From NCBI GenBank assembly GCA_964553135.1, contig CAZKJL010000002.1, forward strand, positions 124,224-188,223: a stretch of 64,000 nucleotides of DNA, written 5' to 3'. The stretch's first letter is position 1. Each line of letters begins with the position of its first letter. Positions 1,792 to 19,367 of this stretch are shown here, in pieces. Source of the stretch: an uncultured Candidatus Peribacteria bacterium (lineage in GTDB: Bacteria; Patescibacteriota; Gracilibacteria; Peribacterales; Peribacteraceae). The notes below the pieces were generated by a model. The model was given only the letters and a program-made list of their open reading frames with translations, had not been told where the DNA came from and did no database searches. A program made the translations under genes and the position numbers.

Positions 1792-1803
1792 GTTAGCGAT
1801 CGA

Positions 1804-2865: not shown

Positions 2866-2941
2866 AAAGAGGTTGGAGGGAGAAATTGGGGATGACGATA
2901 TCATAAAAAATGATTCCTGCAATGTTGAGAATATTCAGAGC

Positions 2942-3019: not shown

Positions 3020-3022
3020 GCG

Positions 3023-5938
3023 TCACAGCATCTTCTTCAGATACTGCCCGGTGTAGCTTTCCTTCACTTCGGCAACGTCTTCGGGCGTACCGACGGCCAC
3101 GATGCGGCCGCCTTCGTCGCCGCCGTCCGGACCGATGTCGATGACGTGGTCCACGGACTTCACGACGTCCAGGTTGTGTTCGATCACGAGCACCGTGTTT
3201 CCTTTCTCCACGAGTCTCTGGAGCACGTCGAGTAGGCGCTGAATGTCATCGAAGTGCAAGCCCGTCGTGGGTTCATCGAGAATATAGAACGTCTTTCCGG
3301 TGGCGCGCTTCGTGAGTTCCGTCGCGAGTTTGATGCGTTGAGCTTCACCCCCCGAGAGCGTGGTGGCGCTCTGTCCCAAGTGGATGTACCCGAGTCCCAC
3401 GTCGCTTAAGGTCTGCAGTTTGTTCTTGATGGACGGGAAGGCGGCGAAGAAATCGAGTCCTTCCGTGATGGTCATGTTGAGCGCATCGGCGATGGTCTTT
3501 CCTTTGTACGTCACCTCGAGCGTCTCACGGTTGTAGCGCTGACCGCGGCACGTTTCGCACGTCACGTACACGTCGGGAAGGAAGTGCATTTCGATGCGCT
3601 TGAGTCCGTCGCCTTCGCAGTCCTCACAACGTCCGCCCGAGACGTTGAAACTGAAACGTCCTGGCTTGTAGCCGCGGGTCTTTGCTTCGGGCGTCATGGC
3701 GAATACGTCGCGCACTTCGGTGAAGATGCCGGTGTACGTGGCGGGGTTGCTCCGCGGCGTGCGGCCGATGGGGGACTGATCGATGACGATGGCTTTGTCC
3801 AAGTGGCCGAGCCCCTTGATCTCTTTGAAGTCCTGGCCCTTGGCGTGCGCTTTGTTGAGCGTGCGGAGGAGTTCGGGAGCGAGGATGCCGTGGATCAAGC
3901 TGGATTTGCCGGAGCCCGAAACTCCCGTGATGCCGATGAGACATCCCAGCGGGAACTTGGCGTGCACGTCTTTGAGGTTGTGGTGCTTGGCGCCCGAGAT
4001 CTCCACGAAGTTGCCGTTGCCCGTGCGGCGCTTCTTCGGAACGTCGATTTTCTTTTTGCCGGAGAGATACTGGCCGGTGACGGACTTGGCGTTGCCGATG
4101 AGCTCCTTGGGCGTGCCCTGGGCCACGACTTCGCCGCCGTGTTTGCCGGCGCCGGGGCCGATCTCCAGCAGCCAATCGGCCGATTCGATCGTCTCTTGGT
4201 CATGTTCCACCACGATCACGGTGTTGCCGATGTCGCGCAGGTTCGTCATGGTTTTGATGAGCTTGGTGTTGTCGCGCTGATGCAGACCGATGCTCGGTTC
4301 ATCGAGCACGTAGAGCACGCCTTCGAGTGCGGAACCGATTTGGGTCGCCAGGCGGATGCGCTGTGCTTCTCCACCCGACAGCGTCGCGGCCGAACGGTTG
4401 AGCGTGAGGTACTTGAGACCCACGTTCTCCAGGAAGTTGAGGCGCGAGACGATTTCCGCGATGACTTTCCGGACAATCGTGTAGTCGTACGTGGAAAGCG
4501 CGCCGTCTTTCTTTTTCTTCGACTTGTCGTCGGTTTTTTCAGGGATGAGGCTTTCGAAGAATTTGCGTGCGGTCACCACGCTCATTTCGGTGCCATCCAC
4601 GATGTTTTTTCCACTCACTGTCACACCCAAGATTTCTTTGCGCAGGCGCTTGCCGTGGCATTCCGGGCACGGGAGCTCGAACATGTAGGCTTCGATCTGC
4701 GAGCGCGTGTAGGCGCTGTCCGTCTCTTTGTGACGACGCTCCAAGTTGGGGATCACCCCTTCGTACGTCGTCTGATAGTGACCGTCGAATTTTTCCGTGA
4801 GGAAGTCCACGTCCACTTTTTCGGGGTGACCGTAGAGCACGATTTTCTGCGCCTCGGGGGTCAGATCTTTCCAGGGGAGATCGAGCGAGAACTTCAGTTT
4901 CTTGGCCAGCGCCGTGAGCGTTTGGAGCATGAAGCTCATGCGTCCGGCGGACGTGGCCCACGGATGAATGGCTCCTTCGGCCACCGTGAGGTCGTGGTTC
5001 GGAACGATGCTCGCGGCGTCGATCTGCAAAATGCTGCCGATGCCGTGGCAGTGCGGACATGCGCCATGCGGCGAGTTGAACGAGAAACTGCGCGGTTCGA
5101 TTTCCGGAATGCTCATCTCCGGATAATCGGGGTTCACGAACCGGTCGCTGAATTTCGTGAGTTCACCCGAGTCGGCGTCCAGAACGAACAGCATTCCTTC
5201 TCCCTTTTTGAGCGCCAGTTCCACGCTGTCCGCGAGACGCACGCGGTTGGGGTTCGGCTGCTCCACGCTCGTGCCATCGCTCAGCTTTTCGGTCACGGGG
5301 TCGAAATCGCGCACCACCATGCGGTCCACGACGATTTCGATGTCGTGGCTCTTCTTGGGATCCAGCTGCAGATCTTCGTCGGCGGTGACGATCTGTCCGT
5401 CCACGCGCATGCGGACGAAACCTTCGCGCTTGATGGTGTCCAAAACTTTCTGATGGGCGCCTTTGCGTCCGATGATCTGGGGCGAGAGGAGCATGATTTT
5501 GCGGCCTTCGGGCATGCGCGTGATCATGTCCGTGATCTGGCTCGGAGATTGTTTGCTCAGCGGCTTTCCCGTGATGGGGCAGTGGACCTGTCCGACCTTG
5601 GCCCACAGAAGACGCATGTAGTCGTAGATTTCGGTGACCGTTCCCACCGTGGAACGGGGGTTTCTTGGCGCAGTTTTTTGATCAATGGAAATGGCGGGGG
5701 AAAGCCCTTCGATGCTGTCGACCTCCGGCTTTTCCATCTGTGCGATGAACTGTCTGGCGTACGCCGACAGAGACTCGGCGTACCGGCGCTGTCCTTCGGC
5801 GAAAATCGTGTCGAACGCGAGTGACGATTTTCCCGATCCGGAAAGTCCGGTGATGACCGTGAGCGAATGCTTGGGAATATCGACGTCGATATTCTTGAGA
5901 TTGTGCATCCTGGCGCCTCTGACCTTGATGAAGTCCAT
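3023..5938 (-). CDS. uvrA: Excinuclease ABC subunit A
   Basis: 971 aa. N-terminus is [22 protein letters not shown]. It has two ABC ATPase modules ([29 protein letters not shown] twice) and zinc-finger Cys clusters. Confidence 0.97.
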
Positions 5939-6030
5939 ATTCGAGAAAATGGAAATAACATGGTTGAATACTCAACCATAGCCGAAAGAGCTTACAGGAC
6001 GGTGAGCGTTTTGTCCAGTCTGGGAAGGGC

Positions 6031-6504
6031 TCAGTAGTCTTGGGCGGGACCCGTGAATTCGATCATGAAATTCTGCTCCAGCCACGGATGAATGTCGTGT
6101 GAAACGTCGCTTTCCTGCAGTTCCGCGATGATTCCCAGGAGCAGCGTCAAGCGATGACGCACGTATCCGATGCTCGTGAGTGATGTCGTCCTTTCCGCAT
6201 TCGCACCTTCGTCGAAACTCGCCACGTATGCCGCGGCTTTCGCATGGTTCTTTTCCGTCGCCGCGGCGATGAGCTCTTCGGAAAACCGTGACACGTCTCC
6301 GCGGAATGCGGCTGCGATGCATGCCGTGAGATTCGCGATGACCGACGCGTTGATCCGTTCGAGGCGGAGCAGCAGCGACAATTCTTCTTCCCCGTCACTT
6401 TCCTCCAGAACTACGGGCGTGGATTCATCGAGCGCATTTCTCAGCAGCTCTTCCAACGTGCCGGTGTGGACCAAGGGAGAACGCATCGGCGCGGCACTAT
6501 CCAA
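6031..6504 (-). CDS. Hypothetical protein (orphan, acidic)
   Basis: 157-aa ORF with non-repetitive protein-like composition. It is co-oriented with and upstream of uvrA. No motif recognised. Confidence 0.5.
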   Translation of the reverse strand: MDSAAPMRSPLVHTGTLEELLRNALDESTPVVLEESDGEEELSLLLRLERINASVIANLTACIAAAFRGDVSRFSEELIAAATEKNHAKAAAYVASFDEGANAERTTSLTSIGYVRHRLTLLLGIIAELQESDVSHDIHPWLEQNFMIEFTGPAQDY

Positions 6505-6528
6505 GAATCGGTTTTTCTTGTCAATTTC

Positions 6529-7029
6529 TCAGGCTTTCTGCAGCACATCGCGGTCTTCCACGGCCACGAGTCCGTTCAGACAGTATTCTTCCAGCATGTC
6601 CGAGAAATCATCCAGTCGCCTCGTCGTCATCACATCATTGATGAGTTCCACGACGTCCATGATCCCGCGCCGTTGCACGCTGATGCGTCCGATGAGATCC
6701 AGTTGATCACCGGTGAAGCGTCCGCCCTGTTTGATGACGTCTTCCTTATAGAGCTCATCCTCAAGATCGATCTTGGGCAGGCGGCTTTTGGAATCGGCAC
6801 CGATGTCGATCATCCAGTCCACGTATTCGTGTGCAAGTTTTGGGTCATGAGCACGCATGAAGCGGAACAAGGAGCTGATGATGCTGCGCTTGGCGGTGCG
6901 CATCACCTCGCGGATGCCGGCCAGCCTCTCCTCTTCATACATCGAAAGATTGCTCGGCCGCGTCAGTCGGTGGAGCTCTCGGCACAACTCGTTCGTGTTC
7001 GCGCGCCACGTTCCTTGGTCATTTTGCAT
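6529..7029 (-). CDS. Hypothetical protein (orphan)
   Basis: 166-aa ORF ending 24 nt upstream of the 6031..6504 ORF, on the same strand. No motif recognised. Confidence 0.5.
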   Translation of the reverse strand: MQNDQGTWRANTNELCRELHRLTRPSNLSMYEEERLAGIREVMRTAKRSIISSLFRFMRAHDPKLAHEYVDWMIDIGADSKSRLPKIDLEDELYKEDVIKQGGRFTGDQLDLIGRISVQRRGIMDVVELINDVMTTRRLDDFSDMLEEYCLNGLVAVEDRDVLQKA

Positions 7030-7134
7030 GGATCGATATCAAGCCAACGTCGTTTTTTCGTCAACTATTATCACATCCTACATGTATTTTTTCGCAAGAA
7101 GTTGCGACGAAGGCTTATGATGTAGGATTCTTCC

Positions 7135-8349
7135 ATGCAACTCCGTCGCTCTGCTCACCTCTTACTTCTGTCGATCCTTGTGCCGCTCGCGGCGCAATCG
7201 ATGACCGTCCTTGCGACGTTTCGCGACGTGCAGCCCGGGGCGTGGTACTACGATTCCGTGGAGGAAGCCGTGAGGCTCGGAGTCGTTGCCGGTTACGCCG
7301 ATGCCCAAGGTCGCCCGACGGGACTCTTCGGTCCTCAGAACGAAGTGACCATCGGAGAGGCGCTCAAGATCGGCATCAAGGGCGCCGGTTTCGACGAGAA
7401 CTTGGGCCAAGGTTACGGTCACTGGGCCGCCAAATATTTGAGCATCGCGCTCGGTGAGAACTTCGAGTTCAGTCATCAGAGCAACATCAACTTCGACTGG
7501 CCCGCGAGCCGCGCCGAGGTCGTCTCCATCATCACCGACGCGTTCCGCGTTCCACGCGTCACTGCCGGTGGGAAGGTCTTTACGGATGTCTCGGCCAATG
7601 CGCAGTACGCCTCGGCCATCGAGTCGCTGGAGTACGACGGCATCGTGACGGGTGACAAAGACTCGTCCGGCAAAGCTACGGGACGCTTCCGCCCGAATGC
7701 CATGATCAATCGCGCCGAAGTCGTGAAGATGATGATTGCCGCCAGAAACTTCTACGGCACGCCGGGTGGCCGCGGAACATCGTCGACATCGTCGTCGTAC
7801 CGCTCCACGAGCAGTTCGTCGTCGACGTCTTCCTCCTCGTCGAGCGGCGGCCAGTGCTCACTCAGTCAGTGCGGCCCCGCACCGGCCATGCCGAACTGGC
7901 AGTGCCCCGACGGATCCATCGGCGGACCGTCGTGTGAAAAGCTTCCCGACGGTCGTTGCGGCTGGCTCATCCGCCAGTGCCCGGTGTCCACATCGTCATC
8001 GAGCAGCTCGTCCTCCAAGTCGTCGTCGAGCAGTTCCAGCAAGTCGAGCAGCAGCTCGTCCCGTGCCAGCCAGACGTTCAATGCAACGTACACGAACTCC
8101 GGCTTCCAGCCTTCGGTCATCTACATCCGGCAGGGCGACCGCGTGAACTTCAAGAACCAGTCGGGCCTCGGCCTCTGGGTCGCGAGCAATCCGCATCCGT
8201 ACCACACCGATTATCCCGAGTTCAACGCGCAAGCCGCCAGCAGCTCGGGCGCCACGTTCACGTTCGTCTTCCAAAAAATCGGAGCGTGGGGTTATCACAA
8301 CCATCTCCAGCCGAATCATCAGGCGGTTGTCGTGGTGGATCCGCGGTAG
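7135..8349 (+). CDS. SLH-domain surface protein with poly-Ser linkers, a 6-Cys module and a C-terminal cupredoxin-like domain
   Basis: There is a signal peptide and two SLH-like repeats (FRDVQPGAWYYDSVEEAVRLGVVAGY; FTDVSANAQYASAIESLEYDGIVTG). Long Ser runs follow. The C-terminal domain (...WVASNPHPYHTDY...GAWGYHNHLQPN) is paralogous to the 28074..28508 product. Confidence 0.8.
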   Translation: MQLRRSAHLLLLSILVPLAAQSMTVLATFRDVQPGAWYYDSVEEAVRLGVVAGYADAQGRPTGLFGPQNEVTIGEALKIGIKGAGFDENLGQGYGHWAAKYLSIALGENFEFSHQSNINFDWPASRAEVVSIITDAFRVPRVTAGGKVFTDVSANAQYASAIESLEYDGIVTGDKDSSGKATGRFRPNAMINRAEVVKMMIAARNFYGTPGGRGTSSTSSSYRSTSSSSSTSSSSSSGGQCSLSQCGPAPAMPNWQCPDGSIGGPSCEKLPDGRCGWLIRQCPVSTSSSSSSSSKSSSSSSSKSSSSSSRASQTFNATYTNSGFQPSVIYIRQGDRVNFKNQSGLGLWVASNPHPYHTDYPEFNAQAASSSGATFTFVFQKIGAWGYHNHLQPNHQAVVVVDPR

Positions 8350-8419
8350 GGCGCTAATGTCTTGCGCGGACTTTACGAATCCCGCCCCGCAAAGCTCTCT
8401 TTGGGGTAAAGTGATCTCC

Positions 8420-9697
8420 ATGCGTCGCGCGCCATGGATTCCGAGGCTCAACGTTTTGCTCTTGGTGTTTGTGATGGTGCTCGGGATCTTGATCCGAACC
8501 TTCCATCTCTCGCATCCCGGAGGATATAGCGACCCCTCCGTCATGAAAAACTGGGGACGAGCGGTGGTGAAAGTGGGTTGGACGCAGAGCTACGGTTTGC
8601 GCGTGAACAATGTGATGCGCTCCAATTACCCGCCCGTGGGCATGGCGGTGTTCGGTGCCGCGGCCCAGGCATATCATTGGTCGGGACACGACATCATGGA
8701 AGACTCGTACCTCTTCACGGTTCTTATAAAATTTCCGTCGATTCTTGCCGATCTGCTTGTTGCACTGGTCATCTTTTTCATCGTGAAGCGATCCGTTTCG
8801 GAAAAGGCGGGCATCGGTGCCGCAGCGCTCTATCTTTTGTATCCCACAACGTGGCTCGTGTCCTCGGCGTGGGGTCAAACCGATGCGATCTACGTAGCGC
8901 TGGCGTTCGGGGGCATCGCGGCGTTGCTTCGGAATCGTCCCATGGTCGCCGGCGTGTGCATGGCCCTCGCATTCTTTATGAAATTGCAGGCCATCTTCTT
9001 CTTTCCGGTTGCGGCGGTCGTTCTGCTCACGCAACGAAAGGACGTCGAGTATTTTCTCATCGGTGCGCTGAGCGTCGTGGCGGCGGTCATCGTTCCGTTT
9101 TTCATCAGCGGAACGCTCGGAGAAGTCGTGGACACGTACCGGTCGCTTGTCGGTTACTACCCGTCACTCAGTTTGTATGCCTACAACGTCTGGTGGGCGC
9201 TTTTTGGCGATGCAGCGCGCAACACGTCGGACCTCAAAATGTTTTCCGTCATTGCCACATATCGAACTGTCGGTTTGGGCATCGTCGCCCTCATCTACGC
9301 CACATTCTCCTGGCGACTCTGGACCGTGCTTCGCAGGATCACCGATCTCCGCATGCGCACGGAGGCAGTACTTGCGGCCGCATCCGTCACCACGCTCGGG
9401 TTCTTCATGTTCAGCACTCAAATGCACGAGCGATACTTCTTCCCGTTCATCGCGTCCGCAATTCCGCTACTTTTTTTCATCGTGCGCGGAAGAGTCATCA
9501 TCGTGACGTTGCTGTGCTCGCTCACACTCAATTTGCTCGCATCGTTTCCCATCAGTCGCTCCATTTTGTACTTCTACAGAATTTTCCCGGAGTTGGATGG
9601 GTTCATCGCATCCATCAATCTCATCTTCTTCATTCAATTGGCATGGACCCTGTGGCGCACGTCGCTCAATCCTTCGCGTCCCAAGACTTCCGCGTGA
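8420..9697 (+). CDS. GT-C-fold membrane glycosyl/mannosyltransferase (PMT_2/ArnT-like)
   Basis: Polytopic membrane protein. I chose the start MRRAPWIPRLNVLLLVFVMVLGILIRTFHL, downstream of the previous stop. The overall architecture is typical of GT-C enzymes. Confidence 0.65.
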   Translation: MRRAPWIPRLNVLLLVFVMVLGILIRTFHLSHPGGYSDPSVMKNWGRAVVKVGWTQSYGLRVNNVMRSNYPPVGMAVFGAAAQAYHWSGHDIMEDSYLFTVLIKFPSILADLLVALVIFFIVKRSVSEKAGIGAAALYLLYPTTWLVSSAWGQTDAIYVALAFGGIAALLRNRPMVAGVCMALAFFMKLQAIFFFPVAAVVLLTQRKDVEYFLIGALSVVAAVIVPFFISGTLGEVVDTYRSLVGYYPSLSLYAYNVWWALFGDAARNTSDLKMFSVIATYRTVGLGIVALIYATFSWRLWTVLRRITDLRMRTEAVLAAASVTTLGFFMFSTQMHERYFFPFIASAIPLLFFIVRGRVIIVTLLCSLTLNLLASFPISRSILYFYRIFPELDGFIASINLIFFIQLAWTLWRTSLNPSRPKTSA

Positions 9698-9703
9698 GTT
9701 TGC

Positions 9704-9731
9704 TTGACTTCGAAAACGTGAGTTCTATCCT
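9704..9731 (+). promoter_or_regulatory. Candidate sigma70-type promoter of the aromatic operon leader
   Basis: TTGACT (9704-9709), a 16-nt spacer, then TATCCT (9726-9731). The predicted transcription start is only a few nt before the leader ATG at 9743. Confidence 0.4.
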
Positions 9732-9742
9732 ATGAGCAGTTT

Positions 9743-9847
9743 ATGAAGACCCGCGTCGCAGCTCTTCGGCTCAAGTCTCCCGTATTCACGACGGCCGCCG
9801 CCGCTGCATTCGCTGCGTTTGCCTTCGCCTACTTTTTCTTCGCCTAA
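9743..9847 (+). CDS. Candidate Phe/Tyr-rich leader peptide (34 aa)
   Basis: Own translation is MKTRVAALRLKSPVFTTAAAAAFAAFAFAYFFFA*. Six Phe and one Tyr fall in the last 12 codons. It lies 195 nt upstream of aroF and is below the ORF-track size cut-off. Confidence 0.5.
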   Translation: MKTRVAALRLKSPVFTTAAAAAFAAFAFAYFFFA

Positions 9848-9853
9848 ATCTCA

Positions 9854-10040
9854 TCTCTCCTAGGACACGCACGCATCCCTACGAGAGACGGGGAGGCGGA
9901 ATTTCCGCTGCGCGGAGTGAAAAGAGAAAGGTGAGCAGTGAAAAACCATTCTTTCACTCGATGTAAGCCGCACTCATCCGTTCTCATCATTCCCAATCCT
10001 TCGCACTTTTCACTTTTATCTTTCCACTTTCCACTCCCCT
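9854..10040 (+). promoter_or_regulatory. Structured 5' leader of aroF with mutually exclusive pairings
   Basis: A hairpin TCTCTCcTAGG/CCTAcGAGAGA (9854-9888) lies just after the leader stop. GAGTGAAAAGA (9914-9924) can pair with TCTTTCACTC (9949-9958). Alternatively it can pair with CTTTTCACT / CCACTCC (10004-10040), which abuts the aroF ATG. Confidence 0.4.
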
Positions 10041-10041
10041 T

Positions 10042-11061
10042 ATGCTCATCGTTCTCCGTGAAAAGAACAACAAAGCGCTTCTCGACGAGGTGCAGGGACT
10101 CCTCCAAACCAAGTTTGGGTGCCCATCGCACGTCATCGGAGAGAATAAGCGCGTGCTCGCCGTCACCGGCGATACGTCCGTCGTGGATGTCGCCCAGATC
10201 AAAAGCATCGAGGGCGTGAAGTCCGTCGACCGCGTGGACAGGCCGTACAAACTCGCCTCACGCGAGAAGAAGAATCGCACCCTCATCACGGTCTCCAAAG
10301 ACTGCGTCATCGGCGATCCGACCTCGGTCGTCATCATCGCGGGTCCCTGCTCCATCGATTCCGAAGGACAGCTCGATGAAACGGCGGCGATGGCCAAGGA
10401 AAAAGGAGTGAAGATCCTCCGCGGCGGTGCGTACAAGCCGCGCACGGGACCGTACTCGTTCCAAGGCAAAGGCAATGAAGGGCTCGCTCTGCTCAAGAAA
10501 GCGGGAGAGAAGTACGGCATGCAGACCATTTCCGAAATCATGAAGGCAGAAGATCTCCCTGCATTCGAGGACACCGTGGACATGCTCCAGATCGGAGCGA
10601 GGAACATGCAGAACTACGAACTCCTCAAAGCGGTCTCCAAATCCAAGAAGCCCGTGATGCTCAAGCGCGGACTTGCCGCCACGCTCGAGGAGTGGCTCCT
10701 TGCCGCCGAGTACTTGCTCGCGGGCGGTAACCAAAACGTCATGCTCTGCGAGCGCGGCATCCGCACGTTCGAGGAAGAAGTGCGCTTCACGCTCTGTCTC
10801 GGCTCCGTGCCCGCACTCCGCGAGCTCACGCACCTTCCCATCATCGTGGACCCCAGCCATGCCATGGGCAAAATGCGTTGGGTGAAAGACGCAGCACTCG
10901 GTGGAGTCGCCGTCGGCGCCGACGGACTCATCATCGAGATTCATCCGCGTCCCTCCGAGAGCGCGTGTGACAGCGCCCAGCTCCTCGATCATGAACACTG
11001 GTCCGACTGTATGGACGGCATCACGAAGGTCGCAGCCGCACTCGGTAAGAAGGTCGTCTAA
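10042..11061 (+). CDS. aroF: 3-deoxy-7-phosphoheptulonate (DAHP) synthase, type I-beta, with an N-terminal regulatory domain
   Basis: 339 aa. The core motif is RGGAYKPRTGPYSFQG, preceded by a ferredoxin-like N-terminal extension of about 80 aa. Confidence 0.9.
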   Translation: MLIVLREKNNKALLDEVQGLLQTKFGCPSHVIGENKRVLAVTGDTSVVDVAQIKSIEGVKSVDRVDRPYKLASREKKNRTLITVSKDCVIGDPTSVVIIAGPCSIDSEGQLDETAAMAKEKGVKILRGGAYKPRTGPYSFQGKGNEGLALLKKAGEKYGMQTISEIMKAEDLPAFEDTVDMLQIGARNMQNYELLKAVSKSKKPVMLKRGLAATLEEWLLAAEYLLAGGNQNVMLCERGIRTFEEEVRFTLCLGSVPALRELTHLPIIVDPSHAMGKMRWVKDAALGGVAVGADGLIIEIHPRPSESACDSAQLLDHEHWSDCMDGITKVAAALGKKVV

Positions 11062-11088
11062 TCCTTTCCACAGGCCTACAATCACGTC

Positions 11089-12135
11089 ATGCAGACCCTC
11101 ACGCTCACAGCTCCGGCTCACGCACCGCGCGCCACATCCATCGTCATCGGCAAGGACACGCTCACGGCACTCCCGAAGATCCTCAAGGACCTGAAGGCCG
11201 ATCGTGTCGCCGTACTCTTCGATGCCGGCATCAAGACGATCGCCGACGGCATCATCAAGAATCTCGGACCCAACGTCATTCCCGTCGCCGTCGCCTCGGG
11301 TGATGCATCGAAGTCGCTGGCAGAAGTGGAAAAGATCGTGAAAAAGCTACTCGATGCGGGAGCCACGAGAAAGACAGTATTTGTCTGCATCGGCGGAGGC
11401 ATGCTCACCGATCTCGGCGGATTTGCCGCAAGTATCTTCATGCGAGGCGTTCCGTGCGTGCTCGTCCCGACCACGATGCTCGGAGCCGTCGATGCGGCCA
11501 TCGGAGGCAAAACGGCAGTGAACTCCGGGGGTCGAAAAAATATGATCGGCACCATCGCACAGCCCCATGCGGTCGTCATCGATATGAAGCTCCTGCTTGC
11601 TCTTCCTGAGGCACAACTCAAAGAAGGACTCGTCGAAGTCATCAAGATCGCCGCCATCGTGGACTTGCCGTTCTTCGAGTGGCTGGAAGACAACATCATG
11701 GCTGTTCTCAAGCGTGACGACGAAGCGTGTTTCGAATGCGTGTCGCGTGCCGTGGAAGCCAAAGTAAAAATCGTCGAGGCCGATGAGCATGATCGCGAAG
11801 AGCGTTTGCTCCTCAACTTCGGCCACACCGTCGGTCACGCCGTGGAGGCGCTCTCGAACTACGAGATGGCGCACGGTACGGCGGTCGGCATCGGTATGCG
11901 CGCCGAAATGGCGCTTGCGAAGTTCAAGGATGCCAGGCGCGTTTCGGCGCTTCTCGATCTGCTCGGACTTCCGTCGAATATTCCCGCATCGATGAAGCCC
12001 GCAGCCCTGTGGCAAGCCATGCAGTCGGATAAGAAGAACGAAGGCGGCGAGGTCCGTGTCGCGGTGCCCACGCACATCGGCGAAGGGTCGGTGCATGCCG
12101 TCACCGAGAAAGATTTTCTGAAACTCTTTTCATGA
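11089..12135 (+). CDS. aroB: 3-dehydroquinate synthase
   Basis: 348 aa with typical motifs (GGGMLTDLGGFAA, LNFGHTVGHAVE). Confidence 0.9.
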   Translation: MQTLTLTAPAHAPRATSIVIGKDTLTALPKILKDLKADRVAVLFDAGIKTIADGIIKNLGPNVIPVAVASGDASKSLAEVEKIVKKLLDAGATRKTVFVCIGGGMLTDLGGFAASIFMRGVPCVLVPTTMLGAVDAAIGGKTAVNSGGRKNMIGTIAQPHAVVIDMKLLLALPEAQLKEGLVEVIKIAAIVDLPFFEWLEDNIMAVLKRDDEACFECVSRAVEAKVKIVEADEHDREERLLLNFGHTVGHAVEALSNYEMAHGTAVGIGMRAEMALAKFKDARRVSALLDLLGLPSNIPASMKPAALWQAMQSDKKNEGGEVRVAVPTHIGEGSVHAVTEKDFLKLFS

Positions 12136-13883
12136 AGACATCCGTTTCCATTCCCGTGCTTCGCATTCCTCTTCAGGCGTCACTCACGCTTCCGGGGTCC
12201 AAGTCGCATGCCAACCGCGCCATCGTGTGTGCCGTGCTTGCCAAGGGAACGACGGTGATTCATGGCGCCACCCCGTGCGACGACGTTGCGGTGATGGTGG
12301 AGAATCTGGGGAAGCTCGGGTTCGATGTGTCGTGGATCGACAAAGAAAAAGGTGAACTTCGGATCAACGGCGGTATTCCCGCAAAGGCAGGGAAGGGGAC
12401 GCTCGATTGTCACAACGCGGGAACCACGCTTCGGTTCTTGGTATCGCTCGCGTGCATCGTTCCCGGCGAATGGACCATTACCGGTGACGACCACATGAAG
12501 AAACGTCCCATCGCGGATCTGACGACGGCACTCAAGAGTCTCGGTGCCGATATCCGCGATACCGACGGATGTCCGCCGATTCATATCCGCGGAGGAACGC
12601 TCAAAGGAGGTGAGGTCACGCTGGATGCCAGTATCAGCAGCCAGTTTCTCTCGTCGCTTCTCTTGATCGCTCCGATGCTGGAGAACGGTTTGTCCGTTAC
12701 CGTCGCAAGCACCCTTGCGTCATCCGGATACATCGAACTCACAAAGAAGACGATGAAGGATTTCGGCATTCAGATATCACAAAAATCGAATACATTTATT
12801 GTACAATCAGGAACATACGATTCGAAATCGACCTACGACATCGAAGGGGATTGGAGTGCCGCGGGTGCATGGCTCGTGCTCCGTGAACTCACGGGCAGCA
12901 TGATCACGTTCCCGAACCTTCGTCCCGATTCCACGCAGTCCGATCGCGCCCTTCCGTCCGTTCTCGGAACGCTTCGCACGTCCGGCGACATCGTCATCGA
13001 TGCCGCACAAATCCCGGACCAAGTCATGAATCTCGCGGTACTCGCTTCGCGTCGCAGCGGATCGATGACCGTCACGAACGCGGCGAATCTGCGCCGCAAA
13101 GAATGCGATCGTCTCGCGGTCATCACGTCCGAACTTTCCAAAGCGGGCGTGCGCATCGCCGAAACAGCCGACGGCATCGTGGTGCACGGTTCAAAAGCGG
13201 AGGGCGCGACGAAAGCCGTCACGCTCGATCCGCACGATGACCACCGCATGGCGATGTGCTTCGCCGTTCTCGGACTTCTCCGAGGCAACGTGAGCATCTC
13301 CAATCCCGACTGCGTGGGAAAAAGTTACCCCGCGTTCTTCCGTGACCTCGAAGAACTCTTGAAGTCCACGCGTCCCGTCACCGTCATCGGCATGCGCGGC
13401 GTCGGGAAGTCGAGTATGGGCAAGAGATTGGCTTCCAAGCTCAAGCTCAAGCACATCGATACCGACAAGCTGTTCGAAAAAAAACACGGGCCCATTCGTC
13501 CGTTCGTCGCCGAGAAAGGTTGGCCCGCATTCCGTGCCGCCGAAGAAGAAGTGTTGGCCGAGGCGCTGTTGCCCGGACGCATCGTTTCGCTCGGCGGAGG
13601 CGCGCTCATTTCCGAGAAGTCGCGCAAGCTCGTCCGCGACCGTTCCATCGTCGTGTGGCTCAAGGCATCCGAGACGGAACTCGTGAAGAGGCTCGGGAAT
13701 GAAAAGCGTCCCTCTCTCACGGATCTGCCGCTGCATGAAGAAGTGAAGAAGCTCGTTGCCGAGCGCACGCCGCACTACAGGGAGGCCGCGCACATCGAGG
13801 TCGGTGAGAAGCTGCGGTTCTCCGAGCACACTGCGCACATCATCCGCGAACTTACGCGCATCACCCGTTCTCCGCGTTCATGA
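12132..13883 (+). CDS. aroA: Fused EPSP synthase / shikimate kinase
   Basis: 583 aa. The N-terminal ~425 aa are EPSP synthase (LPGSKSHANRA, DHRMAMCFAVL). The C-terminal ~150 aa carry the shikimate-kinase P-loop VIGMRGVGKSSMGKRLA. ATGA overlaps occur at both ends. Confidence 0.88.
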   Translation: MKTSVSIPVLRIPLQASLTLPGSKSHANRAIVCAVLAKGTTVIHGATPCDDVAVMVENLGKLGFDVSWIDKEKGELRINGGIPAKAGKGTLDCHNAGTTLRFLVSLACIVPGEWTITGDDHMKKRPIADLTTALKSLGADIRDTDGCPPIHIRGGTLKGGEVTLDASISSQFLSSLLLIAPMLENGLSVTVASTLASSGYIELTKKTMKDFGIQISQKSNTFIVQSGTYDSKSTYDIEGDWSAAGAWLVLRELTGSMITFPNLRPDSTQSDRALPSVLGTLRTSGDIVIDAAQIPDQVMNLAVLASRRSGSMTVTNAANLRRKECDRLAVITSELSKAGVRIAETADGIVVHGSKAEGATKAVTLDPHDDHRMAMCFAVLGLLRGNVSISNPDCVGKSYPAFFRDLEELLKSTRPVTVIGMRGVGKSSMGKRLASKLKLKHIDTDKLFEKKHGPIRPFVAEKGWPAFRAAEEEVLAEALLPGRIVSLGGGALISEKSRKLVRDRSIVVWLKASETELVKRLGNEKRPSLTDLPLHEEVKKLVAERTPHYREAAHIEVGEKLRFSEHTAHIIRELTRITRSPRS

Positions 13884-15274
13884 TCATCGTCACGCTCCCG
13901 ACATCGGCACAGAAAGATCCGCGGACCTTCGCACGCGACGCGCGCAAGGCCGAGGTCGATGTGCTCGAAATCCGAGGCGACCTGACGCCCGCGCTTTCTG
14001 CGTTCGAATCACCGCTTCCCATCCTCTTTTCTCCCCGTGGCAAAGGCCTGAAACTTGCCGAGAGGCTCTCACCGGCGTACATCGATCTTGATCTCGCGGA
14101 ACTCGCACTGCGTCAAAACATGCCCGAAGGCGCCAAGCTCATCGCCAGTTTTCACGATCACAAGGGAACGCCCGACCTCAAGAAGTTGAAAGGAGTCTTG
14201 GACAAACTCTGCGCCGTTCGTCCGTGGGCCGTCAAAATCGCCGTTACGGTCAATTCGTGCGACGATTTGCTGATACTCGAGGCGCTCCGTGCATACGCCT
14301 CGCATCCACGTACGACGATTCTCGGCATGGGGCCTGCCGCGCACCTGATCCGCGTGCTCTCGCCGCTCAACAACCATCTCACGTACGCCGCACTCGGTAC
14401 GGAAGCTTCGGCCCCCGGGCAGCTGACGGTCGCGTTTTACAAGCTCCTCAAGAATCGCACGAAGCCCAAGCTGTACGGCATTCTCGGCGGTCCGCAGATC
14501 ACCGCATCGCTCAGTCCCCTCATTCACAATGCGCTCTTCCTGAAGCACGGCATCGATGCGCTCTACTCATGCTTCCCGTCGACCGATTTCACGGCTTCCA
14601 TCAAGGCTCTCGAGCAACTGGGTCTCGCGGGACTTTCCGTCACGGCTCCCTTCAAGCGCGATGCGTTCGAGTTCGCACGTACGAACGATGCGGTGGCGAC
14701 GTCGCTCGGGGTCACGAACACGCTCGTGAAGTCGGGCAAGAGTTGGAACGGTTTCAATACCGACATCGTCGGCATCGAAAAGGGTTACCCGCTCATCGCC
14801 AAGGCCGCGAAGATCGCCGTGCTCGGTGCGGGTGGAGCCGTGCCTTCCGTCATCTCCGCCGTTCGGAGCGTGAACGCCAAGGCCGAGATCGGCGTCTACG
14901 TTCGCGATATCAAGAAAGCCGCTGAGTCACTCGGTGTCTCGGGTTTCACGATTCAGCCGCTTGAGAGCATCAAGAAAGCATCTGCCGATCTTGTGATCTG
15001 CGCCGTGTCCGAGGATGTTCGATTGCCGCTACCGAAGTCCGTGGGCACGTCGGCCGCAGCCATCGATTTACGCTACGGGAAGGCCACGAACTTCATCAAA
15101 GATGCACGAAGCCAAGGGTTTCACGTCCACGACGGCACCGCGATGCTCATTCACCAAGCACTCAAACAATTCGAACATTTCACGGGCAAGAAATCGGCGC
15201 CCGACGATGCCGCGCACCTGGCCAAAGTCATCGCTTCATTCACTCCCAAAATCCGTTCATCTTTCCACCTCTGA
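13880..15274 (+). CDS. aroDE: Fused type I 3-dehydroquinate dehydratase / shikimate 5-dehydrogenase
   Basis: 464 aa. The N-terminal ~185 aa resemble AroD type I (VLEIRGD, ASFHDHKGTP, AVKIAV). The C-terminal part is AroE (KLYGILGGPQITASLSPLIHN, LGAGGA). Confidence 0.85.
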   Translation: MIIVTLPTSAQKDPRTFARDARKAEVDVLEIRGDLTPALSAFESPLPILFSPRGKGLKLAERLSPAYIDLDLAELALRQNMPEGAKLIASFHDHKGTPDLKKLKGVLDKLCAVRPWAVKIAVTVNSCDDLLILEALRAYASHPRTTILGMGPAAHLIRVLSPLNNHLTYAALGTEASAPGQLTVAFYKLLKNRTKPKLYGILGGPQITASLSPLIHNALFLKHGIDALYSCFPSTDFTASIKALEQLGLAGLSVTAPFKRDAFEFARTNDAVATSLGVTNTLVKSGKSWNGFNTDIVGIEKGYPLIAKAAKIAVLGAGGAVPSVISAVRSVNAKAEIGVYVRDIKKAAESLGVSGFTIQPLESIKKASADLVICAVSEDVRLPLPKSVGTSAAAIDLRYGKATNFIKDARSQGFHVHDGTAMLIHQALKQFEHFTGKKSAPDDAAHLAKVIASFTPKIRSSFHL

Positions 15275-15276
15275 GT

Positions 15277-16269
15277 ATGGCTTCAAATTCCTTCGGTTCA
15301 CTGCTCCGCATCACCACGTTCGGTGAGTCGCATGGCCCCGCGCTCGGCGTCGTGATCGACGGTTGCCCCGCCGGCATTCCGCTCGGCATCGAAGATCTTC
15401 TTCCCGAGCTTGAGCGCCGTCGTCCCGGTCAAAGTGCGGTCACGACTCCGCGCAACGAAGCCGATGCGCCCACGATTCTCTCGGGCGTTTTCGAGGGAAA
15501 GACCACGGGCATGCCCATCACCGTGACGGTCCAGAACAAAGATCAGAAGAGCGCCGACTACGACAAACTCAAGGATGTGATGCGCGTCGGTCACGCCGAT
15601 GCCACGTTCCAAAGCAAGTACGGTCACCGCGATCACCGCGGCGGCGGACGTCAGTCCGGGCGCGAAACGGTGTCCCGTGTCATTGCCGGAGTCATCGCCA
15701 GAAAAATCTTGCCGAAGAGCACCAAGATCATCGGCCACACCGTCAAAATCGGGGCTCTGGAAGCCAAAGTCTTCAAGCCTGAGACCATCGAGAAGAACCC
15801 CGTTCGTTGCGCCGATCCTGCCATGGCCAAGAAGATGGAAGCCTACATTTTGGAATGCAAAGCCGCTGCCGACTCCACGGGCGGACTCATTCAGATCCGC
15901 ATCCAAAAGCCTCCGAAGGATTTGGGCGACCCCGTGTTTGAGAAACTCAAGTCACGTCTCGCGAACGCCGTCATGACCATCGGCGCCGTCACCGGATTTT
16001 CGTACGGTGCCGGATTCAAGACCGCCGAGATGCGCGGCAGCGAATACGCCGCGAATCCGGAGAATTTCGGCGGACTGCTCGGTGGCATTTCCACGGGGGA
16101 CGACATCATTCTCACCGTGAGCATCAAGCCGTCCTCGTCCGTCGGCCAAGTCGCCAAGGAAGGCCGCCACGATCCGTGCATCGTTCCCCGCGTCATTCCC
16201 GTTCTCGAGGCCATGGTCGCACTCGTTCTGGCCGATTCATTACTTCTCCAGCGCGCCTACGCCCGCTGA
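15277..16269 (+). CDS. aroC: Chorismate synthase
   Basis: 330 aa: FGSLLRITTFGESHGPALGVVIDGCPAG, GRHDPCIVPR. Confidence 0.93.
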   Translation: MASNSFGSLLRITTFGESHGPALGVVIDGCPAGIPLGIEDLLPELERRRPGQSAVTTPRNEADAPTILSGVFEGKTTGMPITVTVQNKDQKSADYDKLKDVMRVGHADATFQSKYGHRDHRGGGRQSGRETVSRVIAGVIARKILPKSTKIIGHTVKIGALEAKVFKPETIEKNPVRCADPAMAKKMEAYILECKAAADSTGGLIQIRIQKPPKDLGDPVFEKLKSRLANAVMTIGAVTGFSYGAGFKTAEMRGSEYAANPENFGGLLGGISTGDDIILTVSIKPSSSVGQVAKEGRHDPCIVPRVIPVLEAMVALVLADSLLLQRAYAR

Positions 16270-16283
16270 TTTCTTTTCTCTCT

Positions 16284-16553
16284 ATGACATCACTCACCAT
16301 GCAAGAAATTCGAAAGGCCATCGATGACGCCGACGAGATTTTGCTCCGCGCACTCGCCACACGTTTCCGTGCCGTCGCGCACATGAAGGAACTCAAGCGC
16401 GACGCGCAGATGCAGATCGAAAGTTCCTCGCGCGAGACCGAACTCAAGGCGCTCTGGAAAAAGCGCGCCAAAACGCTCGGTGTCTCCGAAGAACTGGCGC
16501 TCCTCATCCTCGATTTCATTCTATCCGAGAGCAAACGCGTCCAAGGATCATGA
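16284..16553 (+). CDS. Chorismate mutase (AroQ class)
   Basis: 89 aa from MTSLTMQEIRKAIDDADEILLRALATRF..., a helical AroQ-like sequence. I chose this internal start because the ORF-track start overlaps aroC. Confidence 0.8.
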   Translation: MTSLTMQEIRKAIDDADEILLRALATRFRAVAHMKELKRDAQMQIESSSRETELKALWKKRAKTLGVSEELALLILDFILSESKRVQGS

Positions 16554-17398
16554 AGATCACCTCACGACACATCGTCGGCATCATCGGCGGGAAAGGCCGT
16601 ACCGGCAGGCAGTTTTCGGCTCTGCTTAGGGCTCTCGGGCACCGCGTGCTTGTCTCGGATATCGGCTCAGCACTCAAAACATCCGATCTCCTCAAAGCTG
16701 CCGACATCGTGCTCTTCGCCGTCCCGCTCTCCGATGCGGCGGACATCATTCGTACCGAGGTCATCAAGGCAAAGCGCAAGGATCAGCTTATCCTGGATGT
16801 CAGTTCGCTCAAATCGAACGAAGTGAAAGCGATGCTCCGCGGAAGAGGGGAAGTCATCGGCATGCACCCGCTCTTCGGTCCGAGTACGGAACCGAAAGGC
16901 GAGACCATCGTCCTTTGTCCGGCGCGCGCATCCAAAGAGACGGTCGTGTCACTCACGGGACTGCTGAAGAAAGCGGGCCTCAAGACCGTCGTCATGACGC
17001 CGCAGGAACACGACAAGCTCATGTCGGTCGTGCAGGTCATTCCGCACCTCAAGAGTTTCCTGATGGCGGACACCATGCGCGACCTCGGCGTCGATCTCAC
17101 GAAAGTTCTCAAGACCTGCACACCGACCTACGAACTGGAGTTCAACGTCATCGGCAGATTCCTCGATGACCACGCGGGGCTCTACATGCCCATCATTTTC
17201 CGGAATCCCGAGACGACGAAGATTCTGAAATCTCTTCGCAAGCGCATCGACGAATACATCGTTCTCGCCGAACGCAAAGATATCTCCGGCGCAGAGAAGC
17301 GTTACGCCAGGTCCAAGAAATTCTTCGCACCGCATCTCAACATCGCTCGCGCACACAGCGAAGCCTGCATCCGTACGCTTCTTTCCCTCTCACGATGA
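16550..17398 (+). CDS. tyrA: Prephenate dehydrogenase
   Basis: 282 aa with the Rossmann N-terminus VGIIGGKGRTGRQF and a PDH-like core. ATGA overlaps both neighbours. Confidence 0.85.
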   Translation: MKITSRHIVGIIGGKGRTGRQFSALLRALGHRVLVSDIGSALKTSDLLKAADIVLFAVPLSDAADIIRTEVIKAKRKDQLILDVSSLKSNEVKAMLRGRGEVIGMHPLFGPSTEPKGETIVLCPARASKETVVSLTGLLKKAGLKTVVMTPQEHDKLMSVVQVIPHLKSFLMADTMRDLGVDLTKVLKTCTPTYELEFNVIGRFLDDHAGLYMPIIFRNPETTKILKSLRKRIDEYIVLAERKDISGAEKRYARSKKFFAPHLNIARAHSEACIRTLLSLSR

Positions 17399-18180
17399 TC
17401 CGCACACTCGGACCCGCCGGCACGTTCTCCCACGAAGCGTGTGAGAAAATATTTCCGGGCAAACCCGTCACCTTCGAGCCGAATTTCGATGCTCTGTTTG
17501 AGTTTTTGTCTGCGCATCCCACGGACATCGGCATTGTGCCCATCGAGAACAGTTTGCACGGATCCATCGATGAAATTTTGGACCTGCTCCGCGAATCCAA
17601 GGTCCGCATTTGGAGCACGGAGGACCTGTCCATCAAGCATGCATTCGGCGCCAAAGAGCCCCGGTCGGTGCGGAAAATCGCCTCTCACTCCCAGGCGCTT
17701 CGACAGTGTCGCAAGTGGCTCAAGGAGAAGTATCCCGAGGCCGAACACCTTTCGGTGAGCAGCACGGCATCGGCCGCCGAACTTACGGCGAAAGATCCGT
17801 CCGTCGGTGCCATCGCATCGGCTGCGGTTCTCAAGAAACACGGGCTCACCGTCATTTCGGAAGACATCGAAGGCGACGGCAACACCACGCGCTTCGCGGT
17901 CGTGTCGGCACAAGACCCCATGCCCGGGAAAAAGCGAACGCACATGATGATCGTCATTCAACCCAAGGTGGATCGCCCGGGACTCCTGCACGACTTGCTC
18001 GTGCCGTTCAAAGTGTACGACCTCAACATGACGCGCATCGAAAGTCGTCCCGCCGGTACCAAGTTCGGCGACTACGTGTTCTTCATCGATTTCCAGGGCA
18101 GCCCCGATGAACCCAAGGCGCTGCAGACGCTCAAAGATTTGCGTTCCATCGCCACGGTCGACGTTCTCGGCCAGTGGTAA
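17395..18180 (+). CDS. pheA: Prephenate dehydratase with a C-terminal ACT domain
   Basis: 261 aa: LGPAGTFSHEA, then the ACT-like region MMIVIQPKVDRPGLLHDLL...TRIESRP. Confidence 0.88.
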   Translation: MIRTLGPAGTFSHEACEKIFPGKPVTFEPNFDALFEFLSAHPTDIGIVPIENSLHGSIDEILDLLRESKVRIWSTEDLSIKHAFGAKEPRSVRKIASHSQALRQCRKWLKEKYPEAEHLSVSSTASAAELTAKDPSVGAIASAAVLKKHGLTVISEDIEGDGNTTRFAVVSAQDPMPGKKRTHMMIVIQPKVDRPGLLHDLLVPFKVYDLNMTRIESRPAGTKFGDYVFFIDFQGSPDEPKALQTLKDLRSIATVDVLGQW

Positions 18181-18200
18181 TTATTTCTTTCCCTCTTTGT

Positions 18201-19367
18201 ATGTCCAGGTCCATGTTCTCCTCTCTACCCGCCGCAAAGCCCGATCCGCTCTTCGCGATCGCGGCCGAGGCGCGGGCGGCGGGACCGACGTGCATCGACG
18301 GGACGCTCGGCGTCTACATGGATGAAGAGGGGAAGCCCCTCATGCTTCCGAGTGTCGGCAAAGCCATGAACGAGCTCGGGAAAACGCTCAAGGATTTCAA
18401 CTGCGCATACCCGCCGCTCACGGGGCTTCCGAGTTATCGTTCGGCCGTCCACAAACTCATCGCCACAGAGTCCGACATCGTCGCGTCCATCGCTTCGACG
18501 GGAGGTACCGGGGCGCTCGCCATCAACCTGCGGCTCATGAGCATGCTTTTGGGCTCCGAGAAGCCAAATATCATTCTTCCGATGCCCGCCTGGGCAAACC
18601 ACATGCCCGTCTGCAAGTGGGCCGGATTCACCGTCATCGAAACGCCGTACTTGGTGAACAAGAAGGCGAGCATCGATGCCATCGCGGACACGATCAAAAC
18701 ACAGAGCGGCAAGTTCGGCATCATGCTCCAGGTCGGGTGTCACAATCCCACGGGTCTCGATCTCGCCGATGCGGATTGGCCTGCGCTCATCAAAATTCTG
18801 CAGACGAAAGAATGCGTGGTGCTCCTGGACTTCGCGTACCAGGGATTCAAGGGCGAGCCCGAAGCCGATGCGGTGGCCATCCGTCTCTGCCGAGAGGCCG
18901 GACTCACGACGCTCGTCACGTGGTCGGCGTCCAAAAACCATTCCATCTACGGACTCCGCACGGGGCTTGCCGCCGCGTTCGTCAATGCCGAGGACGAAAA
19001 GAAAACCGTGGAGGGAACGTACTCCGTCATCTCGCGAGGACTCCATTCCGCTGCTCCCACGTTCGGCCAAGCCGTCGTGGCGCTCACGCAGGAGAAGTAC
19101 CGCACCGAGTGGCTGAAAGATCTCGCCGATGCACGCGCCATGATGAGTAAAAAGAGGAAGCTTCTCATCGACGGACTTCCGCCCTCGTGCACACCCGCAC
19201 TCAGCGGCTACGGCATGTTCGCCATGCTGCCCCTCAGCCCCGAGCAAGTGACGCGCCTCAAGACCCAGCACAACGCGTTCGTACCTCTCGACGGCCGCGT
19301 GAATATCGCCGGCATTCCGCTCAAGCGCATCGGAGAGCTCTGTGAGAAGGTAAAAGCGGTGCTCTAG
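18201..19367 (+). CDS. Aromatic/aspartate aminotransferase (class I, TyrB/AspC-like)
   Basis: DPLFAIAAEA... at the N-terminus and the PLP-lysine motif SASKNHSIYGLRTG. The start is ambiguous (18201 or 18213). Confidence 0.85.
   Translation: MSRSMFSSLPAAKPDPLFAIAAEARAAGPTCIDGTLGVYMDEEGKPLMLPSVGKAMNELGKTLKDFNCAYPPLTGLPSYRSAVHKLIATESDIVASIASTGGTGALAINLRLMSMLLGSEKPNIILPMPAWANHMPVCKWAGFTVIETPYLVNKKASIDAIADTIKTQSGKFGIMLQVGCHNPTGLDLADADWPALIKILQTKECVVLLDFAYQGFKGEPEADAVAIRLCREAGLTTLVTWSASKNHSIYGLRTGLAAAFVNAEDEKKTVEGTYSVISRGLHSAAPTFGQAVVALTQEKYRTEWLKDLADARAMMSKKRKLLIDGLPPSCTPALSGYGMFAMLPLSPEQVTRLKTQHNAFVPLDGRVNIAGIPLKRIGELCEKVKAVL

Follow-up and report, generated by a model that had tools for sequence, protein, structure and literature searches.

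In an uncultured Candidatus Peribacteria bacterium, the operon headed by aroF is preceded by a short open reading frame (ORF) whose last codons are mostly those of phenylalanine and tyrosine, and by two RNA hairpins that exclude one another, one of which stands beside a short run of U. The stretch of DNA analysed (hereafter the window) comprises 64,000 nucleotides (nt) of contig CAZKJL010000002.1, and coordinates are those of the window unless another locus is named. We place at about three in four the probability that the element acts as a ribosome-mediated transcription attenuator responding to how fully tRNA-Phe and tRNA-Tyr are charged, and in some relatives tRNA-Trp too. Computed from the genomes are the ORF and how well it is conserved, the geometry, and two competing helices with compensatory changes in both; conservation, covariation and geometry together make the attenuation reading well supported at the level of sequence. 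The initial annotation of this DNA had proposed a Phe/Tyr leader of the pheL type before a Phe/Tyr operon, a proposal that is now strongly supported, as the ORF, its aromatic tail, the promoter and their position are kept in 21 of 22 orthologous loci. This type of switch is well known; the lineage, Peribacteria within the Candidate Phyla Radiation (CPR), is where it had not been described before. Besides the host lineage, the probable leaderless start, the three-segment layout that is ON by default and the weak U-tract make the element noteworthy.

The aromatic leader ORF

The region is bounded by the stop codon (9697) of an ORF for a GT87-like membrane glycosyltransferase and by the start (10042) of aroF, which encodes a 3-deoxy-D-arabino-heptulosonate 7-phosphate (DAHP) synthase with an FXD domain. 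It begins with the following features:

9704..9731, plus strand: sigma-70-like promoter found by pattern scan, with -35 box TTGACT (9704-9709), a 16-nt spacer and -10 box TATCCT (9726-9731)
9743..9847, plus strand: leader-peptide ORF of 34 codons plus TAA (UAA 9845-9847), with the translation MKTRVAALRLKSPVFTTAAAAAFAAFAFAYFFFA

The promoter, TTGACT-N16-TATCCT, is present as first annotated and is the sole promoter-like match of the pattern scan in 9400-10400. The earlier translation of the ORF is matched exactly: the peptide holds seven Phe and one Tyr, and its final 12 codons hold six of the Phe and the Tyr. A spacer does separate the leader stop from aroF, but it measures 194 nt and not the 195 nt first given. 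Within the window, a tail of this kind is rare. Among 559 small ORFs (15-60 amino acids (aa), both strands), only two have at least seven aromatics among the last 12 residues, the leader included, and the second sits in tandem-repeat DNA.

Orthologs were collected by exact-protein look-ups and by scanning metagenomes with the N-terminal domain of AroF, which is specific to the lineage. This gave 22 distinct orthologous aroF loci (AroF identity 60-88%), of which 19 were analysed in detail. Roughly 90 AroF homologs reach at least 60% identity; homologs that carry source names belong to Candidatus Peribacteria, Peribacteraceae or Peregrinibacteria. A scan with the full-length AroF alignment picked up patterns universal in DAHP synthases, and all 80 of its loci come from other phyla, an imperfect control set. 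Conservation of the mini-ORF, which the initial annotation had put forward as a check on its proposal, is borne out: 21 of the 22 distinct loci have an equivalent ORF of 24-36 codons at the corresponding position, whose C-terminus, or a stretch near it, is rich in aromatic residues (for example MRARVTTAVLPTIQRSFAVIAAAAAFGFAAAFFAA, MFSAVRASGLNSATIAARGFWFYFS, MSRTSRPQAPLVFTAFWYGFYRFFT and MRTRTLALRQSSSILTLAVALSMYAWFGFYFFFR). The peptides diverge otherwise, and the aromatic cluster is what they retain. Half of the last 12 residues of the 19 ortholog leaders are F, Y or W (Phe 35%, Tyr 11%, Trp 3%), and the same three residues make up 5% of the operon's own proteins. The enrichment follows the reading frame, with 117 aromatic codons in frame versus 24 and 47 in the other two frames of these 19 leaders.

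The promoter is likewise kept in all 19 loci, at the same place relative to the leader start, as TTGAC[T/A/G]-N16-TAnnnT, the spacer being 16 nt except for one locus with 17 nt and one with 18 nt. The leader start codon lies 6-11 nt past the -10 hexamer in 18 of the 19 (11 nt in the window) and 16 nt past it in the remaining locus. Transcription usually starts about 7 nt past the -10 box, so a start site placed by this rule would leave the leader a 5' untranslated region of 0-4 nt, and the mRNA is probably leaderless or nearly so. A Shine-Dalgarno-like sequence precedes 4 of the 53 long ORFs of the window (20 nt before each start), and its absence before the leader and before aroF is a trait of the genome and not a peculiarity of the locus. 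Many starts in the window are preceded instead by CU-rich tracts resembling the anti-Shine-Dalgarno sequence, such as CCCTCCCCC, CCACCTC, CCCTCTC and TCCTCCTC. The segment GGGAGGCGG was considered as the Shine-Dalgarno site of a hidden ORF or of aroF and rejected, because the genome does not use such sites and, besides, no start codon follows it and it lies 35-150 nt from aroF.

In one ortholog with 77% AroF identity (L100/L101; locus numbers are our own), neither leader ORF nor switch was found, and the attenuator has apparently been lost from this sequence. Two opposite-strand tRNA genes lie directly upstream of aroF there (1300-1500 of the locus), in an AT-rich region. Another ortholog, with 71% identity (L084/L085), has a leader holding Phe, Trp and Tyr (GFWFYFS); a Trp_repressor-family gene (2413-2715 of the locus, minus strand) together with trpE, trpG and trpD is divergently placed just upstream of its aro leader promoter. 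At its other end, the leader of the window's clade keeps an N-terminal motif, M-R/K-T-R-x-x-A-L-R-x-x-S (9743-9780), which reads ATGCGCACCCGC...CTCTCCGG at the nucleotide level and includes a second CTCTCC; the attenuator model leaves this motif unexplained.

Two competing helices

Downstream of the leader stop codon, the following segments can form either of two hairpins:

9849..9864, plus strand: antiterminator 5' arm A, with outer part 9849-9852, core UCUCUC 9854-9859 and inner UAGG 9861-9864 (RNAfold, inverted repeat, pair counts and geometry)
9872..9880, plus strand: terminator 5' arm B, CGCAUCCCU (seen when the 12 nt that follow the stop are masked in the fold; pair counts)
9878..9894, plus strand: antiterminator 3' arm A', with CCUA 9878-9881, the invariant GAGAGA 9883-9888 (in the terminator loop) and GGGA 9891-9894 (part of B')
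9890..9898, plus strand: terminator 3' arm B', GGGGAGGCG (folds and pair counts)
9902..9904, plus strand: short U-run UUU, 3 nt past the terminator stem

Arm A begins 2 nt after the leader stop codon. The hairpin first annotated at 9854-9888 is present, with arms 9854-9864 and 9878-9888 that are 91% complementary, and it is this antiterminator. A:A' draws on the B:B' loop and on part of either B:B' arm, which makes the two structures mutually exclusive; positions 9878-9880 of B, with loop base 9881, have 9861-9864 as their partner when the antiterminator forms. In the window, A:A' has a folding energy of -16.1 kcal/mol and B:B' one of -11.2 to -12.8 kcal/mol.

The same pair of structures recurs in the orthologs. 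A:A' is the minimum free energy (MFE) fold of the segment from stop codon to U-run in 16 of 19, with the hairpin beginning 0-9 nt past the stop. When the first 12 nt after the stop were barred from pairing, in imitation of a ribosome at the stop codon, inspection of the folds showed B:B' next to the U-run in the large majority, and 14 of the 19 passed a stricter automated terminator criterion. Every one of the 19 sequences has U3-U7 within 0-4 nt of the B:B' stem. The tail after the stem is GAAUUUCC or similar in the window's clade, and several orthologs (L095, L096, L102, L084 and L090) have textbook U-tracts of U4-U7, with tails such as GGAGGCGC-UUUUCG (L095), GAAGCA-AUUUUUUUG (L096) and GGGGCGC-UUUUUUG (L102).

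Folds of naked full-length leaders, from start codon to U-run, contain the antiterminator in 18 of 19. Arm A is unpaired with the coding region in 15 of these 19 folds and touches it by a single base pair in two more, unlike in the four-segment trpL and pheL leaders, where a segment 1 within or overlapping the ORF pairs with segment 2 and untranslated RNA terminates. The folding models thus describe a three-segment design that is ON by default, unlike the four-segment E. coli trp layout: with no segment 1 to sequester A, naked RNA would default to the antiterminator and termination would need a ribosome at the stop codon. In L109, the ortholog furthest from the window (60% AroF identity), the leader is MLSNAYFYGFWFYFSQEKGLSRVR; its aromatic cluster lies in mid-ORF and is followed, still within the coding region, by the antiterminator arm GAGAAGG. 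By its sequence, the logic appears to be the same and the layout more classical.

A MAFFT alignment of the stop-to-U-run segments, which are short and rich in insertions and deletions, was poor, and RNAalifold predicted no pairs from it. It was replaced by gap-free, N-padded alignments anchored on the conserved GAGA/CUCUC and GC/GC motifs, in which pairs were counted, with these results:

Antiterminator A:A': 72% of cells paired, versus 41-63% with the partner slid
Antiterminator A:A': 33 cells changed on both sides, versus 4-16 with the partner slid; reached by 0 of 500 shuffles
Terminator B:B': 77% of cells paired, versus 52-57% with the partner slid
Terminator B:B': 13 cells changed on both sides, versus 2-6 with the partner slid; reached by 3 of 500 shuffles

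Compensatory base changes in orthologous leaders, which the initial annotation had also suggested looking for, are thus found in both helices. The antiterminator pairs flanking the invariant core alternate among G-C, U-A and A-U, while in the terminator, for example, the base of the stem changes from C-G to A-U or U-A and the middle from U-A to C-G.

The geometry of the leader fits the two structures. Across the orthologs, 2-14 nt separate the first base of the stop codon from the A core, a distance that falls within the ribosome footprint, whose size we take as established. Most aromatic codons (129 of 137) are 13 nt or more upstream of this core, and a ribosome stalled at them would leave A free.

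From these features we infer where transcription starts, that the leader is translated, that transcription actually terminates and how the element responds to amino acid supply, as follows. Transcription would start at the leader AUG or a few nt before it, and a ribosome would translate the 34 codons of the leader as RNA polymerase moves on through the following ~60 nt. With Phe and Tyr plentiful, the ribosome would arrive at the UAA (9845-9847) with its footprint over the CU-rich arm A; with A covered, B would pair with B', and the hairpin and U-run would end transcription before aroF. With charged Phe- or Tyr-tRNA scarce, the ribosome would stall at an aromatic codon, 15-69 nt upstream of the A core; arm A, then exposed, would pair with A', which would preclude the terminator and allow the polymerase to read from aroF through the aminotransferase gene.

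Weighing the attenuator against other readings

Several observations weigh against this attenuator. A consensus scan finds no terminator in the leader region of the window, and the terminator proposed here has only UUU, 3 nt from a stem with an A·G mismatch; the same holds in the closest relatives. Canonical terminators are not clearly enriched in the window either (19 found versus 19 expected in 1-20000; 29 versus 21.7 and 32 versus 21.6 in the other two segments), and the consensus scan is uninformative across the window. The whole 326-nt leader region folds no better than shuffles (z score -1.45); in the folding models, the signal sits in the alternative local helices and not in overall stability. 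No pause element that could synchronise ribosome and polymerase was identified. As to covariation, the alignment anchors were derived from the predicted structures, the sequences are related to one another, and the CUCUCU:GAGAGA core is nearly invariant in all 19 and hence gives no covariation signal. Of the 19 native sequences, 13 pass an automated test for a terminator with a competing stop-proximal antiterminator, but so do 24% of dinucleotide shuffles, an effect of the base composition (5' side rich in CU, 3' side rich in GA); the test discriminates moderately and is supportive but not decisive. Separately, the near-invariance of CUCUC/GAGAG is something that the attenuator model does not explain, as pairing alone would permit covariation.

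The initial annotation had reported no canonical terminator, and had suggested that regulation might act by translational occlusion. The consensus scan agrees with the first of these statements, but a non-canonical terminator-like hairpin (9872-9898) followed by UUU (9902-9904) had been overlooked. Translational occlusion is not supported, since a conserved hairpin with a U-run exists and the annotated hairpin at 9854-9888 is its competing antiterminator; the conserved pair makes classical transcription attenuation the better reading, and transcription termination appears the most likely OFF mechanism on these models. A further structure lies between the switch and aroF:

9914..10037, plus strand: accessory long imperfect hairpin with 31-nt arms at 9914-9944 and 10007-10037 (MFE -31.5 kcal/mol, z score -3.2)

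None of 200 shuffles folds as well. The 3' arm repeats CACTTTC in tandem about 4.6 times, and 4 nt separate its end from the aroF ATG. The alternative pairings described earlier belong here: GAGTGAAAAG does pair with CTTTTCACT, but within this inverted repeat and not as part of the conserved switch, and the pairings among GAGTGAAAAGA, TCTTTCACTC and CTTTTCACT are present, but lie in a lineage-variable hairpin of 7-nt repeats with clade-specific sequence. A comparable long hairpin occupies the same place in L087, L097, L088/L089, L090 and L093, its sequence depending on the clade (AATGTAC or AATGGAC repeats, for example) and its distance to the aroF AUG varying too. It is absent from 12 of the 19 orthologs, whose 25-77-nt spacers hold no significant structure (z scores -2.1 to +0.6). 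By this comparison, the long hairpin is accessory, lineage-variable and outside the conserved switch; it may influence how aroF is translated or how stable its mRNA is. No second copy of the switch motif or of the long-hairpin arm was found in the window.

Other long hairpins with tandem-repeat arms, mostly intergenic and in the same style as 9914-10037, occur in the window at 2942-3017, 31742-31824, 40452-40514 and 41960-42052, and further repeat arrays at 579-622 and 37007-37037. Their arms are built of 9-nt units (GGAAACCAA / TTGGTTTCT, or GAATACAAA / TCCTTGTAT) or of 7-nt units (CACTTTC, TGAAAAA), and sites include positions just past the uvrA stop, just past the stop of a PolX-like gene and 7 nt upstream of an MscS-like start. 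Where such hairpins overlap ORFs, the 9-nt period could reflect tripeptide repeats.

One could combine the two structures: a minimal three-segment attenuator with a leaderless ORF, in a bacterium lacking Shine-Dalgarno sites, would rely for termination wholly on a ribosome at the leader stop; with its U-run decayed to UUU in the window's clade, it would act jointly with the long hairpin, and the repeat-arm hairpins at gene boundaries would form a genome-wide class gating translation initiation or mRNA stability in this reduced CPR genome. We regard this scheme as unlikely; if true, aroF would be under a second level of control, through the long hairpin, of a kind not described before.

Control by translation alone would have leader stalling re-pair the downstream RNA, exposing or hiding the CU-rich region before the aroF AUG; in the window, 9949-9958 and the 3' arm next to the AUG could be alternative partners of the 5' arm GGAGUGAAAAGAG. 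The stability of the long hairpin and its end near the AUG would suit this idea, as would the scarcity of Shine-Dalgarno sites, through which an unstructured start region may matter for initiation, and the weak terminator U-run of the window's clade. There is also a precedent in the leaderless polycysteine short ORFs of mycobacteria, which act translationally as described in the account of Canestrari et al. (bioRxiv 10.1101/834739). Against it, the hairpin is missing from most orthologs, ends 35-65 nt before the AUG in L088, L089 and L090 and differs in sequence by clade; neither the leader nor the conserved switch is tied to it by any pairing; hairpins of like build stand at unrelated gene boundaries in the window; and the elements that are conserved are the hairpin with the U-run and its competitor. 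We consider such a mechanism improbable.

The switch could also be real while its OFF state is something other than intrinsic termination, with Rho or another factor acting on the C-rich, G-poor spacer after ribosome release, or with B:B' working through RNA processing or stability. The weak U-tract of the window's clade, the lack of a clear enrichment of canonical intrinsic terminators in the window and the CU-rich, unstructured spacers past the hairpin all point this way, but a U-run adjoins B:B' in all 19 sequences, with UUUU to UUUUUUU directly after the stem in L095, L096 and L102 among others, and spacers come down to 25-35 nt, a length that offers little room for Rho to load; this too seems quite unlikely.

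It is very improbable, finally, that the mini-ORF arose by chance or encodes a small hydrophobic membrane peptide with a function of its own, the hairpins being unrelated: an ORF in one genome alone would be weak evidence, and in the closest clade the peptide does resemble a signal or transmembrane segment (a basic N-terminus, M-R/K-T-R, then an Ala/Phe-rich stretch, with M-R-T-R-x-x-A-L-R conserved), yet distant orthologs retain only the aromatic cluster and its position, MFSAVRASGLNSATIAARGFWFYFS and MSPRTFSSVQISSARAGSFTWYFN are not hydrophobic helices, the distance from the stop codon to the antiterminator core stays within 2-14 nt, what is enriched is specifically Phe, Tyr and Trp codons in one reading frame, and the element is found solely in front of the aromatic pathway operon.

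The aroF operon, related leaders and significance

The genes downstream of the putative attenuator were assigned by Pfam scans and ORF coordinates:

10042..19367, plus strand: operon of nine genes from aroF to the aminotransferase gene
16284-16553, plus strand: type II chorismate mutase of 89 aa (Pfam CM_2, E 5e-13)

The order is aroF, aroB, an aroA-aroK fusion, an aroD-aroE fusion, aroC, chorismate mutase, tyrA, pheA and a class I/II aminotransferase gene, with junctions that range from a 7-nt overlap to a 27-nt gap. An apparent 280-nt gap between aroC and tyrA was considered as a second regulatory region and rejected, as it encodes the chorismate mutase. By these assignments, the operon comprises the whole route from DAHP to Phe and Tyr, which the chorismate mutase completes. 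The GC content of the window (56-59%) is close to the 58.5% of Ca. Peribacter riflensis (PMC4736985).

In attenuators of the E. coli pheL type, alternative terminator and antiterminator hairpins read the level of charged tRNA-Phe through the position of the ribosome. The leaders of E. coli pheL-pheA and pheM-pheST belong to this class, with a short, Phe-codon-rich upstream ORF (PMC11802643). The Peribacteria element shares the Phe-rich short ORF and the alternative hairpins, and would share the read-out by ribosome position. It differs in that its RNA sequence is unrelated; there is no segment-1 protector hairpin, so that naked RNA defaults to read-through; the start is probably leaderless, with no Shine-Dalgarno site; Tyr codons, and Trp codons in relatives, are mixed with those for Phe; and a nine-gene operon for the whole pathway follows in place of a single terminal-branch gene.

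By function, the nearest analogue appears to be aroR of Corynebacterium glutamicum, where, according to the summaries of Neshat et al. (2014) in PMC11802643 and PMC4046766, a Phe-Tyr-Phe leader precedes the aroF operon and stalling under Phe limitation raises read-through. In both cases an aromatic leader stands before an operon headed by a DAHP synthase gene. C. glutamicum is an actinobacterium, however, and its leader has only three aromatic codons, whereas those of Peribacteria have 4-9 over about 14 codons; the RNA sequence is different, and the Peribacteria operon extends to the terminal branches for Phe and Tyr. The two elements are unlikely to be homologous. The mycobacterial polycysteine ORFs mentioned above offer a different parallel, a leaderless short ORF as the first cistron of an amino acid operon with stalling at a run of cognate codons, but the hairpin with U-run and its competitor in Peribacteria point to transcription termination.

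T-boxes, found in Firmicutes and other phyla, bind uncharged tRNA directly and use no ORF. Those for Phe, Tyr and Trp perform the same task, a choice between terminator and antiterminator that depends on tRNA charging and governs aromatic biosynthesis genes. The Peribacteria element has an ORF, and no T-box match was found in the window region or the orthologous loci: Rfam gave no leader-family or T-box match in window 9000-11000 even at E <= 10, and no match at gathering score in 20 related loci.

Aromatic leaders turned up elsewhere as well. Among the 80 control loci, uncultured Clostridia/Oscillospiraceae have aromatic mini-ORFs upstream of aroF-type genes (L003 2703-2753, L015 2859-2915, L016 2828-2878 and L018 85-150), with the leaders MKRSFAQFAFYFGYIA, MKLNGFYFYGYYFFEPIS (L015), MTARLFAYYFTFICWK and VNKMKKVFNYYFYNFYFFRPY. 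As in Peribacteria, the mini-ORF lies 90-250 nt upstream of a gene for the same DAHP synthase subfamily (FXD) and a stop-proximal hairpin competes with a terminator, but the stems are canonical and GC-rich with U6-U8, the sequences are others and the genomes are low in GC; these leaders too have no Rfam match. Weaker candidates occur in Acholeplasma (L012) and Brachyspira (L051). Closer to the window, a Peregrinibacteria bacterium (GCA_007375735.1; L107, ~1945-2082) has a candidate leader with tandem Trp codons, MSCSFVPLYRYITIRRLDWWQDSKQSVRR, before an operon of trpE, a trpG/DAHP-synthase fusion and aroB; the alternative pairings CCGTTCGG / CCGAACGG are followed by a terminator, CCCTCCCCGAACGGGAAGGG-TTTTTT. 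The Clostridia leaders and this Trp leader suggest that leader-peptide control of the pathway is recurrent. Full-text searches of the papers available returned no report of attenuation in Peregrinibacteria or CPR.

Two further features of the window touch neither the leader nor its operon. At 23948-24265 and 31431-31678, the genes for tRNA-Arg(tcg) and tRNA-Ala(ggc) stand beside, or are overlapped by, 2.7-2.8 tandem copies of a 96-nt or 82-nt unit, each array overlapping the end of its tRNA gene by ~20-55 nt; these arrays may reflect repeated partial tRNA duplications or integration scars. The segment 54001-56000 has a GC fraction of 0.46 versus 0.55-0.62 elsewhere, with promoter-like matches clustering at ~55000-55340, and may be foreign or AT-rich regulatory DNA.

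CPR bacteria are uncultured, have small genomes and are usually described as devoid of most amino acid biosynthesis and as having little regulation. The genome paper on Ca. Peribacter riflensis, for one, reports only a few amino acid biosynthesis genes (PMC4736985). The window shows a Peribacteria genome with a complete, compact operon from DAHP to Phe and Tyr behind a conserved leader-peptide switch. The element has no Rfam family and could seed one, and its probable leaderless start and default-ON, three-segment layout would make it a compact natural sensor of Phe and Tyr. For metatranscriptomics, the attenuator predicts a short transcript of ~160 nt ending near 9904. Such a switch would imply that this lineage couples transcription to translation and can sense how far its tRNAs are charged; it would extend a textbook mechanism to a new branch of the bacteria and would not overturn current understanding.

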